Below are positions 13,351 through 53,192 of a stretch of 64,000 nucleotides of DNA, piece by piece. A model generated the notes under the pieces. It did no database searches, had not been told where the DNA came from, and saw only the letters and a list, made by a program, of their open reading frames with translations. The translations under genes and the position numbers were made by a program. Source of the stretch: Escherichia coli O157:H7 (GTDB lineage: Bacteria > Pseudomonadota > Gammaproteobacteria > Enterobacterales > Enterobacteriaceae); assembly GCF_013167455.1 (NCBI RefSeq), contig NZ_CP038328.1; one strand, given 5' to 3'. The stretch's first letter is position 1. Every line of letters begins with the position of its first letter.

Positions 13351-13714
<364 letters not shown>

Positions 13715-26003: not shown

Positions 26004-26035
26004 AAAAAGAGCCGCAATTGCGGCTCTTAACATTT
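26003..26035. terminator. Bidirectional terminator between convergent yfcD and yfcC
   Basis: agagccgc-aatt-gcggctct perfect hairpin flanked by aaaaa upstream and ttttt downstream. Confidence 0.75.
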
Positions 26036-40686: not shown

Positions 40687-40779
40687 TTTGCGCCTGTCGG
40701 CAAAGGGATTTTTCTTCGCTTATTCCTAAATCTATTTCGCGAAGCTTGCTGCGCCGACAGTCACCACGGACCATTTGCA

Positions 40780-44419: not shown

Positions 44420-44471
44420 CCGAATTTCGATTAACGCTCAGTCTCTGACTGAGAAAACTGGAAGCATGCTA

Positions 44472-49295: not shown

Positions 49296-49594
49296 TCCCC
49301 TTACAACATGGACTGATCCTCGCGGCAATCTTATTCGTTCTTGGCTTAACCGGTCTGGTTATCCGTCGCAATCTGCTGTTTATGCTGATTGGTCTGGAAA
49401 TCATGATTAACGCTTCCGCGCTGGCCTTTGTGGTCGCCGGAAGTTACTGGGGCCAGACCGACGGTCAGGTGATGTACATTCTCGCCATCAGCCTCGCGGC
49501 GGCAGAAGCGAGTATCGGCCTTGCGCTGCTGCTGCAACTTCACCGTCGTCGCCAGAACCTGAACATCGATTCAGTAAGTGAGATGCGCGGATGA
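49292..49594 (+). CDS. nuoK: NADH:quinone oxidoreductase subunit K
   Basis: 100 aa, three TM helices; 4-bp overlaps with nuoJ and nuoL. Confidence 0.95.
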
Positions 49595-51432
49595 ACATGC
49601 TTGCCTTAACCATTATTTTGCCATTGATTGGCTTCGTCCTGCTGGCGTTCTCCCGTGGGCGCTGGTCTGAAAACGTCTCGGCGATCGTCGGCGTTGGCTC
49701 TGTGGGCCTGGCGGCGCTGGTAACTGCCTTTATTGGCGTTGACTTCTTCGCTAACGGCGAGCAGGCATACAGCCAGCCGCTGTGGACGTGGATGTCGGTA
49801 GGCGACTTTAACATCGGTTTTAACCTGGTGCTGGACGGCCTGTCGCTGACCATGCTCTCGGTGGTCACTGGTGTGGGTTTCCTTATTCACATGTACGCCT
49901 CCTGGTATATGCGCGGTGAAGAGGGCTACTCTCGCTTCTTCGCTTACACCAACCTGTTTATCGCCAGCATGGTGGTTCTGGTGCTTGCCGACAACCTGCT
50001 GCTGATGTACCTCGGCTGGGAAGGCGTGGGCCTGTGCTCCTATCTGCTGATCGGGTTCTATTACACCGATCCGAAGAATGGCGCAGCGGCAATGAAAGCG
50101 TTCGTCGTGACCCGTGTGGGTGACGTGTTCCTCGCTTTCGCGCTGTTCATTCTTTACAACGAACTGGGCACCCTGAACTTCCGCGAAATGGTGGAACTGG
50201 CACCAGCGCACTTTGCTGACGGCAATAACATGCTGATGTGGGCGACGCTGATGCTGCTGGGCGGTGCGGTCGGTAAATCTGCGCAGTTGCCGTTGCAGAC
50301 ATGGCTTGCCGACGCGATGGCGGGCCCGACGCCTGTCTCCGCGCTGATCCACGCCGCAACGATGGTAACCGCGGGTGTCTACCTGATCGCCCGTACCCAC
50401 GGCCTGTTCCTGATGACGCCGGAAGTTCTGCATCTGGTGGGCATTGTTGGGGCGGTTACGCTGCTGCTGGCCGGTTTTGCCGCGCTGGTACAGACCGACA
50501 TCAAACGTGTTCTCGCTTACTCTACCATGAGCCAGATTGGCTACATGTTCCTCGCGCTTGGCGTGCAGGCATGGGATGCGGCGATTTTTCACTTGATGAC
50601 CCACGCGTTCTTTAAAGCGCTGCTGTTCCTGGCATCCGGTTCCGTCATTCTCGCCTGCCATCACGAACAGAACATCTTCAAGATGGGCGGTCTGCGTAAA
50701 TCTATTCCGCTGGTTTATCTCTGCTTCCTGGTGGGCGGCGCAGCACTGTCGGCACTGCCGCTAGTCACTGCGGGCTTCTTCAGTAAGGATGAGATCCTCG
50801 CGGGTGCGATGGCGAATGGTCATATCAATCTGATGGTGGCAGGTCTGGTCGGTGCGTTTATGACCTCGCTCTACACCTTCCGTATGATTTTCATCGTCTT
50901 CCACGGAAAAGAACAAATTCACGCTCACGCCGTGAAAGGGGTAACTCACAGCCTGCCGCTGATTGTGCTGCTGATCCTTTCCACCTTCGTTGGCGCACTG
51001 ATTGTACCGCCGCTGCAGGGCGTGCTTCCGCAAACGACGGAACTGGCGCACGGCAGCATGTTGACCCTGGAAATTACCTCTGGCGTGGTCGCGGTGGTCG
51101 GCATTCTGCTGGCAGCCTGGCTGTGGCTGGGTAAACGTACTCTGGTGACCTCCATCGCCAACAGTGCGCCGGGCCGTCTGCTGGGCACCTGGTGGTACAA
51201 CGCCTGGGGCTTTGACTGGCTGTACGACAAAGTGTTCGTCAAGCCGTTCCTGGGTATTGCCTGGTTGCTGAAACGCGATCCGCTGAACTCAATGATGAAC
51301 ATCCCGGCTGTCCTTTCCCGCTTTGCAGGTAAAGGCCTGCTGTTAAGCGAGAACGGTTATCTGCGCTGGTATGTGGCATCCATGAGCATCGGTGCGGTCG
51401 TGGTGCTGGCACTGTTGATGGTACTGCGTTGA
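49591..51432 (+). CDS. nuoL: NADH:quinone oxidoreductase subunit L (antiporter-like)
   Basis: 613 aa; Mrp-antiporter-like polytopic protein. Confidence 0.96.
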
Positions 51433-51662
51433 GTTGTTGGCTGAGTGAATATACCCGGCGTTGCGCCGGGTCTGTGAACTAAGAATAAATTTTAGGTAAC
51501 TGTTCCTGAAGTACAGGCGTCATCGGCGAAGTCAGACCGGATACCGCCAGCGCACAGCAACCGGAGCGTACTTAAGTACGTGAGGATTGCGAGCACTGCC
51601 GGGATTCGGGCTGGCGAGTGAGATAGCCTGAGCAGGAGTAAATATAAGGGACATACTTAGCT

Positions 51663-53192
51663 ATGTTATTACCCTGGTTAATACTAATCCCCTTTATCGG
51701 CGGCTTCCTGTGCTGGCAGACCGAACGCTTTGGCGTCAAGGTGCCGCGCTGGATCGCGCTGATCACCATGGGATTGACGCTGGCGCTGTCGCTGCAACTG
51801 TGGTTGCAGGGCGGTTATTCACTGACGCAATCCGCCGGAATTCCGCAGTGGCAGTCTGAATTCGACATGCCGTGGATCCCGCGTTTTGGTATCTCTATCC
51901 ATCTCGCCATTGACGGGCTGTCGCTGCTGATGGTCGTGCTGACCGGTCTGCTCGGTGTGCTGGCGGTACTCTGTTCGTGGAAAGAGATCGAAAAATATCA
52001 GGGCTTCTTCCACCTCAACCTGATGTGGATCCTGGGCGGCGTTATCGGCGTGTTCCTTGCCATCGACATGTTCCTGTTCTTCTTCTTCTGGGAAATGATG
52101 CTGGTGCCGATGTACTTCCTGATCGCACTGTGGGGGCATAAAGCCTCTGATGGTAAAACGCGTATCACGGCGGCAACCAAGTTCTTCATTTACACCCAGG
52201 CGAGTGGTCTGGTGATGTTGATCGCCATCCTGGCGCTGGTTTTTGTTCACTACAATGCGACCGGCGTCTGGACCTTCAACTATGAAGAGCTGCTGAATAC
52301 GCCAATGTCCAGTGGTGTGGAATATCTGTTGATGCTGGGCTTCTTCATCGCGTTTGCGGTGAAAATGCCGGTGGTTCCGCTGCATGGCTGGCTGCCGGAT
52401 GCGCACTCACAGGCACCGACCGCCGGTTCCGTGGACCTCGCGGGGATCTTGCTGAAAACCGCCGCTTACGGTCTGCTGCGTTTCTCCCTACCGCTGTTCC
52501 CAAACGCGTCGGCAGAGTTCGCGCCAATCGCCATGTGGCTGGGTGTTATCGGCATCTTCTACGGTGCGTGGATGGCCTTCGCCCAGACCGATATCAAACG
52601 TCTGATCGCCTACACCTCGGTTTCCCACATGGGCTTCGTACTGATTGCTATCTACACCGGCAGCCAGTTGGCCTACCAGGGCGCGGTAATCCAGATGATT
52701 GCGCACGGCTTGTCAGCGGCGGGTCTGTTTATTCTTTGTGGTCAGCTTTATGAACGTATCCATACCCGCGACATGCGCATGATGGGCGGTCTGTGGAGCA
52801 AGATGAAATGGCTGCCAGCCTTGTCACTGTTCTTTGCGGTGGCAACGCTCGGGATGCCAGGCACCGGTAACTTCGTCGGCGAATTTATGATTCTGTTCGG
52901 CAGCTTCCAGGTTGTCCCGGTGATTACCGTTATCTCTACCTTTGGGCTGGTCTTTGCATCTGTTTATTCGCTGGCGATGTTACATCGCGCTTACTTCGGT
53001 AAAGCGAAAAGCCAGATTGCCAGCCAGGAACTGCCAGGGATGTCGCTGCGTGAGCTGTTTATGATCCTGTTGCTGGTGGTGCTGCTGGTACTGCTGGGCT
53101 TCTATCCGCAGCCGATTCTGGATACCTCGCACTCCGCGATTGGCAATATCCAGCAGTGGTTTGTTAATTCCGTTACTACTACAAGGCCGTAA
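51663..53192 (+). CDS. nuoM: NADH:quinone oxidoreductase subunit M (antiporter-like)
   Basis: 509 aa. Confidence 0.96.
   Translation: MLLPWLILIPFIGGFLCWQTERFGVKVPRWIALITMGLTLALSLQLWLQGGYSLTQSAGIPQWQSEFDMPWIPRFGISIHLAIDGLSLLMVVLTGLLGVLAVLCSWKEIEKYQGFFHLNLMWILGGVIGVFLAIDMFLFFFFWEMMLVPMYFLIALWGHKASDGKTRITAATKFFIYTQASGLVMLIAILALVFVHYNATGVWTFNYEELLNTPMSSGVEYLLMLGFFIAFAVKMPVVPLHGWLPDAHSQAPTAGSVDLAGILLKTAAYGLLRFSLPLFPNASAEFAPIAMWLGVIGIFYGAWMAFAQTDIKRLIAYTSVSHMGFVLIAIYTGSQLAYQGAVIQMIAHGLSAAGLFILCGQLYERIHTRDMRMMGGLWSKMKWLPALSLFFAVATLGMPGTGNFVGEFMILFGSFQVVPVITVISTFGLVFASVYSLAMLHRAYFGKAKSQIASQELPGMSLRELFMILLLVVLLVLLGFYPQPILDTSHSAIGNIQQWFVNSVTTTRP

Follow-up and report, generated by a model that had tools for sequence, protein, structure and literature searches.

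An intact dispersed palindromic repeat in the long nuoL-nuoM spacer of Escherichia coli O157:H7

Introduction

What fills the gap of 230 bp that separates nuoL from nuoM in an operon whose genes otherwise lie close together or overlap? A preliminary description, made from the letters of the 64-kb stretch of Escherichia coli O157:H7 DNA analysed here (the window, in which all positions are counted), had noted a GC-rich hairpin and a palindrome in the gap and had suggested an RNA processing or stabilising element, an internal promoter or a decayed repeat. The results presented below show that the gap is made up of a small hairpin, a linker and a palindromic repeat, an intact member of a dispersed, MITE-like family. 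The spacer is long because this copy occupies the nuoL-nuoM junction, and an odd feature of the operon is thereby explained by an ordinary class of object, the palindromic intergenic repeat.

Results and Discussion

The nuoL-nuoM spacer and its parts

The list of open reading frames and the sequence itself confirm a spacer of 230 bp at 51433-51662, inside a packed operon as first described, and the region is 100% identical to E. coli O157:H7 records that carry the same annotation. The other gaps measure 15 bp (nuoA-nuoB), 93 bp (nuoB-nuoC), 2 bp (nuoC-nuoE), 46 bp (nuoF-nuoG), 14 bp (nuoH-nuoI), 11 bp (nuoI-nuoJ) and 6 bp (nuoM-nuoN), and the remaining nuo junctions are overlaps. The nuoL-nuoM junction is the clear outlier: apart from nuoB-nuoC, no gap elsewhere in the operon exceeds 46 bp. 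The earlier statement that nuo genes overlap or lie less than 50 bp apart holds for most junctions but not for nuoB-nuoC, which at 40687-40779 is the second-longest gap of the operon.

As shown in Table 1, four parts can be told apart in the spacer. A small hairpin follows nuoL; next come an A/U-rich linker and the repeat, which folds as a long hairpin, and last the ribosome-binding site of nuoM. The complete spacer was predicted to fold at -89.1 kcal/mol (z -4.6), far better than its shuffles, and the stem-loop after nuoL at -19.6 kcal/mol (z -4.45). The perfect 14-bp palindrome CGTACTTAAGTACG lies at exactly 51567-51580, where it had been placed, and the GC-rich hairpin CCCGGCG-TTG-CGCCGGG is present as well, although at 51454-51470 and not at 51463-51481, an offset of about 9 nt upstream. 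Each is mildly unusual, a 14-bp palindrome being found in 1.3% of shuffled spacers and a perfect hairpin with a 7-bp stem in 5.2%. The 64-kb window holds five perfect 14-bp palindromes including this one; the four others are at 26011, 31906, 57295 and 62672.

Table 1. Features of the nuoL-nuoM junction (window positions)
Feature	Position	Strand	Basis or remarks
nuoL coding sequence	49591-51432	+	Stop codon TGA at 51430-51432; ORF list; nuoL in the identical annotated O157:H7 record
Stem-loop after nuoL	51441-51483	+	Core CCCGGCG (51454-51460), TTG, CGCCGGG (51464-51470); no U-tract after it
A/U-rich linker between both hairpins, …TAAGAATAAATTTTAGGTAAC…	51484-51502	+	Unpaired or weakly paired in predicted folds
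Full RNA hairpin, about 135 nt, outer arms TTCCTG / CAGGAG	51503-51638	+	Fold
Left TGA direct repeat	51507-51509		Sequence
Imperfect-palindromic dispersed repeat, 119 bp, enteric "type A" short form	51510-51628	+	BLAST and covariance model
Sub-threshold sX9 (RF02228) match	51525-51581	-	16.0 bits, E 4.8; gathering score 44
Conserved core CAGCGCnnAGnnACC-GGA-GCGTAC-loop-GTACGT-GA-GGATnnCGAGCACTG	51548-51598	+	Alignments of family copies, pair counts
Right TGA direct repeat	51629-51631		Sequence
Shine-Dalgarno-like AAGGGA of nuoM	51646-51651	+	11 nt before the ATG, 8 nt past the hairpin base
nuoM coding sequence	51663-53192	+	ORF list; annotation in the identical O157:H7 record

Structure prediction, proposed earlier as a check on the spacer, revealed a feature that had gone unseen, the hairpin of about 135 nt that extends over 51503-51638. 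On the mRNA strand it folds at -61.2 kcal/mol (z -4.98), and none of 200 shuffles was as good; the opposite strand yields -53.0 kcal/mol (z -3.37), the mRNA sense being better by 8 kcal/mol. Unlike the two smaller features, this hairpin and its membership of a repeat family (see below) go far beyond what chance would give. The conserved core contains purine-rich internal loops and an apical stem-loop at 51566-51581. The palindrome is the tip of this long hairpin, namely the apical stem (GCGTAC/GTACGT) with its TTAA loop; the apical loop of other family members is not self-complementary. The terminal arms are short in the window and lie outside the TGA repeats, and they may be either diverged ends of the element or part of a target hairpin that was there before.

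An internal promoter for nuoMN, or a terminator or attenuator past nuoL, would be one way to account for a long gap with a GC-rich hairpin directly after nuoL. That hairpin, however, is followed by TCTGTGAAC, and consensus scans detected neither a sigma-70-like site on the plus strand of the spacer nor a hairpin with a T-run (an intrinsic terminator) in 51433-51662. Complex I, moreover, requires all 13 nuo genes in fixed stoichiometry. The internal promoter of the preliminary description is left unsupported, and we regard control of this kind, whether by promoter, terminator or attenuator, as very improbable.

A repeat family with a covarying hairpin

Essentially every E. coli genome has copies of the 119-bp repeat, with an identity of 77-80%, at pheM-pheS, qseE-qseG and pyrH-frr, and a fourth E. 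coli locus is cysP-ucpA. When 5426 complete E. coli genomes were compared by BLAST, positions 82-199 of the spacer matched elsewhere in 5425 of them, with a median of 4 detectable places per genome (4-6). The data that bear on a replication-strand bias are few: in E. coli, three of four copies share a strand, and Citrobacter R56 points the other way.

When one genome per species was scanned with the core pattern, at least 120 loci were found in several phyla. The matches listed come from many Enterobacterales, from Aeromonas and Silvimonas, from the Burkholderiales Polaromonas, Rhodoferax, Paucibacter, Hylemonella and Herbaspirillum, from one Scalindua genome and from Chlorobi with many copies each. 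They fall into an enteric subtype, called "type A", and a second one, "type B"; both have the core AGnnACC-GGA-GCGTAC-loop-GTACGT-GA-GGATnnCGAGCA in common and adopt the same rod-like fold. A covariance model, referred to hereafter as R1, was built from 122 copies, including those that score with the sX9 model discussed below. R1 matches the window at 51507-51638 with 111.6 bits (E 2e-29), its sole match in the 64 kb. Of the three options raised at first, a decayed repeat comes nearest: it was right as to the repeat but not as to the decay, since at this score the copy is an intact, full-length member of the family.

Pairing in the 122 copies, all taken from the matches listed, was compared with two controls. 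Standard pairs made up 84.6% of the total, compared to 67.5% in shuffled alignments and 22-35% when partners were slid; changes on both sides of a pair numbered 1009 cells against 368 in shuffles, and the covariation score was 0.44 against 0.15, which points to selection on the structure. The invariance of the apical stem in these copies is forced by the exact search pattern, which inflates the apparent conservation of the core. Copies found by the covariance model do contain compensatory variants of that stem (GTGTAC/GTACAT and GTGTGC/GCACAT). Coding potential was considered for two minus-strand ORFs of 34 and 40 aa and rejected: a conserved frame is ruled out by the length of the apical loop, which differs across the family (4 to 8 nt). 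The repeat is thus dispersed, multi-copy and short, without a conserved reading frame, and the nuoL-nuoM element is very probably a member of a family of dispersed palindromic repeats.

The setting of the copies is not random with respect to strand. Among the matches listed, the minus strand lies within 40 nt past a stop codon in 50 cases and the plus strand in 11 (p 5e-7). In 23 other copies among these matches it is the plus strand that precedes a start codon by no more than 40 nt, and the nuoL-nuoM copy is of this kind. Several arrangements were seen once or a few times. Pantoea stewartii (L021, 6530-6818) carries two tandem copies, 124 bp apart, that have the junction arm in common. A Chlorobiales MAG (L045, 7900-11700) has three copies, two of them oriented alike and each placed immediately behind one of two successive genes (one sirtuin-like, the other an ORF of 271 aa); the copies adjoin a protein with a TIR-like N-terminus, in a layout that recalls a cassette array. 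Two further variants from Chlorobium MAG loci (L025, 7889-7996, and L028, 3399-3506) are 108 nt long and have the apical core replaced by CTCTCCTATCC, so the arms of the element are able to persist without the core. An association with phages was considered and dropped when the 21 viral or prophage contigs of IMG/VR concerned (L131-L151) proved to be two loci repeated across related contigs, with ordinary type-A copies. In Bacillus halodurans, the 5' exon common to four group IIC intron copies (primer Bh5'NGS1) contains …CAGACCGGAGCGTACAC (PMC1702495). This sequence resembles the core of the element, and it is a possibility, judged from the likeness of these few letters, that the family occurs in Firmicutes and serves there as a target hairpin for introns.

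Relation to sX9 and to other known repeats

An Rfam scan of the window returned no family that reached threshold on the element. The sole Rfam relative of the repeat family is sX9 (RF02228), a Xanthomonas sRNA that corresponds to the strand opposite to the nuo mRNA. Type-B copies from Burkholderiales match sX9 on their minus strand with up to 47.2 bits (Hylemonella, L113), above the gathering score of 44, and other relatives score 37.6 bits (L105) and 30.4 bits (L054). The window copy stays below the gathering score (Table 1); it belongs to the divergent enteric subtype and has different arms. The homology is bridged by intermediates: R1, with the sX9-scoring copies included, matches the window at the high score given above, and both subtypes fold alike. 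The sX9 model is limited to 76 nt, and its consensus corresponds, in reverse complement, to the apical hairpin together with a single arm. Both sX9 and the present family are multi-copy and very widespread.

sX9 was identified as a 75-nt RNA, verified by Northern blot, for which no start site was mapped, and its reads were fewer after enrichment for primary transcripts than without treatment (PMC3300014). The read distribution suggests that sX9 is a processing product. The original account presents a stand-alone RNA whose conservation is confined to two Xanthomonas species (PMC3300014; Schmidtke et al. 2012), not a palindromic mobile repeat. sX9 is one of the most often annotated sRNA families, with no known function (PMC9029176), and was reported to be non-disruptable in a transposon screen of X. 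citri. The present analysis links this Rfam family to an old, functionless repeat class of E. coli and shows that the family covaries, is MITE-like and extends over several phyla.

The enteric copies are probably the repeat called RSA in older surveys of E. coli. In the surveys of Bachellier and colleagues, RSA is about 152 bp long and has about 6 copies in K-12. The enteric long form, 145 bp with two 3-bp flanks, at 4-6 places per genome, resembles it in size and number; the nuoL-nuoM copy, a short form absent from K-12, does not. A search of the literature for the RSA reference sequence and for the nuoL-nuoM intergenic region found nothing usable.

The ERIC repeats (IRU, RU-1) are similar in that they are imperfect palindromes of about 120-130 bp, transcribed from intergenic sites, MITE-like and with a conserved central core. 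They are unlike the element in sequence, and the element is flanked by a 3-bp TNA whereas the flanking repeat of ERIC is TA. An identity with ERIC, guessed from the central ACTTAAGTA, was rejected because there is no significant similarity to the 127-bp consensus. Only word matches of 7-10 nt (E >= 0.02) were found to the consensus (PMC2759123, Table 1a), and the global identity of 0.58-0.59 equals that of shuffles (0.55-0.59). Neither YPAL/RU-2 nor RU-3 (a BIME) has significant similarity to the element at the level of the consensus. ERIC repeats in yersiniae alter the expression of neighbouring genes through RNA hairpins (PMC2267715).

The element is three times longer than REP/BIME sequences and unrelated to them. 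A REP is present in the K-12 spacer (score 17, the best shuffle reaching 12) and, upstream of the element, in Citrobacter spacers; the spacer of the window has none, its scores (9-10) being within the range of shuffles (maximum 12-13). REPs are the classic intercistronic hairpins that stabilise mRNA. Elsewhere in the window, three tandem matches to naRNA4 (CssrE, a REP-derived RNA associated with the nucleoid) at 13405-13657 on the plus strand (72-83 bits, spaced by about 91 bp) represent a REP/BIME cluster. The nuo operon itself has a second conserved intercistronic RNA structure, the nuoG motif (RF01748), at the nuoF-nuoG junction (44422-44464, plus strand, 50.3 bits), but this is a 43-nt, single-copy cis-regulatory motif of unrelated sequence.

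Two groups of look-alikes were discarded. The strings AGUACGUGAGGA and ACCGGAG recall AGUACGAGAGGACCGGAG of the sarcin-ricin loop of 23S rRNA, yet BLAST against an rrn operon gave only chance-level matches (E >= 0.16). Kink-turns, C/D boxes, loop E, the RfaH ops site and CsrA sites each show a partial resemblance by eye, and none fits the covarying pairs.

Hallmarks of a mobile element

The enteric long form ends in GAGCCTATCCCA…TGGGATAGGCTC, which are clear terminal inverted repeats. Its flanks are identical (TTA/TTA or TAA/TAA) in 10 of 16 enteric copies and are inverted in none. Inverted flanks are what a simple extension of the palindrome would give. Flanks of TCA/TCA were found in 2 of 5 copies from Burkholderiales, and the boundaries of the element are ambiguous in Chlorobi. 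The window copy is a short form without outer arms of the GAGCCTATCCCA type; it is flanked by TGA/TGA, as are the copies in Citrobacter, MAG CTSoil_132 and Ca. Pantoea deserta. The fetched loci, with 1.1 Mb of flanks searched for terminal-repeat pairs around an ORF, contained no cognate transposase and no full-length parent.

These hallmarks invite the reading that the copy is a selfish remnant, a non-autonomous mobile repeat in a permissive spot, harmless to its host and with a hairpin and core that serve its own mobility. Direct-repeat flanks, an allele that lacks the element (described below) and many dispersed copies in both orientations are what this reading predicts, but the lack of a transposase or parent in the 1.1 Mb of flanks tells against it.

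Conservation of the nuoL-nuoM copy

Among the matches listed, the element is found at the same site and in the same orientation in at least nine other genomes, 29-32 nt before nuoM: Enterobacter sp. Bisph1, two Citrobacter youngae, a Citrobacter MAG, MAG CTSoil_132, three Pantoea species and Winslowiella iniecta. This sample was drawn with the exact core pattern, which leaves empty or degraded sites under-sampled. The nearest relatives of nuoL-nuoM copies, among the matches listed, are other nuoL-nuoM copies.

Identity to the window copy is 0.77-0.96 for the element, compared to 0.59-0.81 for third codon positions of nuoM and 0.46-0.65 for the rest of the spacer. In 10 orthologs among the matches listed, paired positions comprised 360 Watson-Crick, 27 G.U and 7 A.C cells (p 8e-4); full compensation was seen in several columns. 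The outer arms covary among species as well (GGTCCG/CCGGAC, TTGTC/GGACAA and ACCCCGT/ACGGGG). The 34 nt from the element to the start of nuoM are 100% identical in three Citrobacter genomes. We conclude that the nuoL-nuoM copy, shared in site and orientation with Citrobacter, Enterobacter, Pantoea and Winslowiella, is old and that purifying selection maintains it as a hairpin. It is a rare case of an insertion that can be traced as an ortholog across bacterial families and that evolves under constraint. A neutral insert should decay, and yet this one is more conserved than synonymous sites at family-level divergence; together with the compensatory double substitutions and the 27:7 excess of G.U over A.C on the transcribed strand, this weighs against a selfish remnant.

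The rest of the spacer retains its plan more than its sequence. A hairpin or a REP stands at the position after nuoL in all ten other spacers compared, with a different sequence in each. At the position of the linker, other species and the K-12 allele have an A/T-rich stretch with a motif like AAGAAT…TTTTAG. The order of hairpin or REP, A/U-rich linker, long hairpin and ribosome-binding site recurs in all spacers compared.

Two alleles in E. coli

The 230-bp allele is present in 724 of 5426 E. coli genomes (13%), always at 99% identity or more, and the other 87% have a spacer of 163 bp. Conservation of the spacer, suggested earlier as a check, thus has two answers: as a whole it is not conserved, being replaced in most E. 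coli genomes, but the element within it is conserved across genera. The 163-bp spacer holds the REP, upstream of the place of the missing element, and K-12-type loci have no R1 match. The K-12 allele reads …GTTGAAAATCCGGTCC-TGA-CGGGACTTTTACAAGG…, with a single flanking TGA where filled sites have TGA/TGA. The flanks in the K-12 spacer are homologous to the spacers of Enterobacter and Citrobacter, with one TGA at the site of the element (GGTCC-TGA-CGGGAC). The K-12-type allele is best read as derived, the element having been lost through excision or because the stretch between the TGA repeats was deleted; loss is favoured over a site that was never occupied because filled sites are spread so widely in the taxonomy.

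Loss from 87% of E. coli genomes, with flanking genes 98-99% identical to K-12 and no sign of compensation, is again what would be expected of a harmless remnant. Taken with the evidence of selection in other genera, we consider the selfish reading unlikely.

The window is close to K-12 in nuoL (98.9%) and nuoM (97.6%), and both genes are 86-92% identical to Citrobacter. The element and the 34 nt before nuoM, on the other hand, are 95-100% identical to C. youngae. The polymorphism is therefore sharply local, and from these identities it would either be of long standing or stem from the import of a short segment.

Possible role of the nuoL-nuoM copy

Our preferred reading is that the gap holds an intact repeat that acts as part of a processing or stability module in the nuo mRNA, and to this reading as a whole we give a probability of about 0.55. 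The mechanism, an intercistronic hairpin for mRNA processing or stability, is the more tentative part of it. The element would be transcribed within the nuo mRNA and fold into the hairpin of about 135 nt, and the upstream hairpin, the linker and the element hairpin would together make up the module. The linker (51484-51502) may be inferred from its sequence to be a candidate entry site for RNase E. Cleavage there would release a nuoA-L segment with a protective hairpin at its 3' end, and the same cut would leave a nuoMN segment whose 5' hairpin shields the message and insulates the ribosome-binding site of nuoM. The 23 copies ahead of start codons and the recurrent order of parts in the spacers compared are in keeping with such a module, and the hairpins of REP and ERIC repeats and the apparently processed sX9 provide precedents. 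RNase III cleavage in intergenic hairpins can either stabilise or destabilise E. coli transcripts (PMC5371410). The RNase III site near pheM reported in the same study was considered and rejected, as it maps upstream of pheM and not in the pheM-pheS copy of the repeat.

Of the options raised in the preliminary description, an RNA processing or stabilising element is a plausible one in view of the covariation of the stem, the compensatory changes, the G.U bias and a conservation that exceeds that of synonymous sites. Three findings stand against the module. Because 87% of E. coli genomes do without the element, any function must be dispensable, or else the REP and the small hairpin that is left take its place. 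The conservation of the unpaired core is stronger than a generic barrier to exonucleases needs. Finally, the commoner context of the family among the matches listed is the opposite strand after stop codons (50 versus 11).

The last two points direct attention to the core itself. It might be a dedicated motif, bound or processed by a specific, widely conserved partner such as a protein or a nuclease, and it may also be the precursor of an sX9-like sRNA, and the nuoL-nuoM copy would then act through this candidate partner, possibly by way of an antisense transcript. Its unpaired nucleotides are near-invariant across phyla while the stems covary, it combines tandem internal loops of the G-A type with a fixed apical stem, and the unpaired columns of the family are 74% purine on one strand, the plus strand as oriented here. 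The orientation bias at stop codons points the same way, as does sX9, a Northern-verified and highly prevalent RNA that resisted disruption in X. citri. A promoter-like site on the minus strand (51669-51641: ATAACA, 17 nt, TATATT) points into the element and would start antisense transcription at its right end, in the sense of sX9; this match, however, is 9/12, with 0.5 such matches expected by chance. The invariance of the core is also partly imposed by the search pattern, the Chlorobium variants exist without it, and the strand present in the nuo mRNA is not that of sX9 but the other one. We know of no partner of the conserved core, and we consider a dedicated motif improbable as the explanation of this copy.

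A bolder version would make the core a functional RNA or single-stranded DNA module that is carried across phyla on MITE-like vehicles with lineage-specific ends and recognised by a conserved candidate factor. sX9 would be one processed product of it, and the nuoL-nuoM copy would have been domesticated to tune the distal subunits of complex I. We think it improbable too; if it were true, the dimorphism of element and REP in E. coli would represent a natural functional replacement.

E. coli offers a natural pair of alleles, one with the element (13%) and one with a REP and a single TGA (87%), in which the effect of a hairpin on a long, stoichiometric operon is directly testable. Two patches of nuoM (51663-51762 and about 52260-52560) are 94-96% identical to K-12, compared to 98-100% elsewhere in nuoH-nuoN; the first, which covers the first 100 nt of the gene, adjoins the polymorphic spacer, and to judge by their identity both may mark short recombination tracts.
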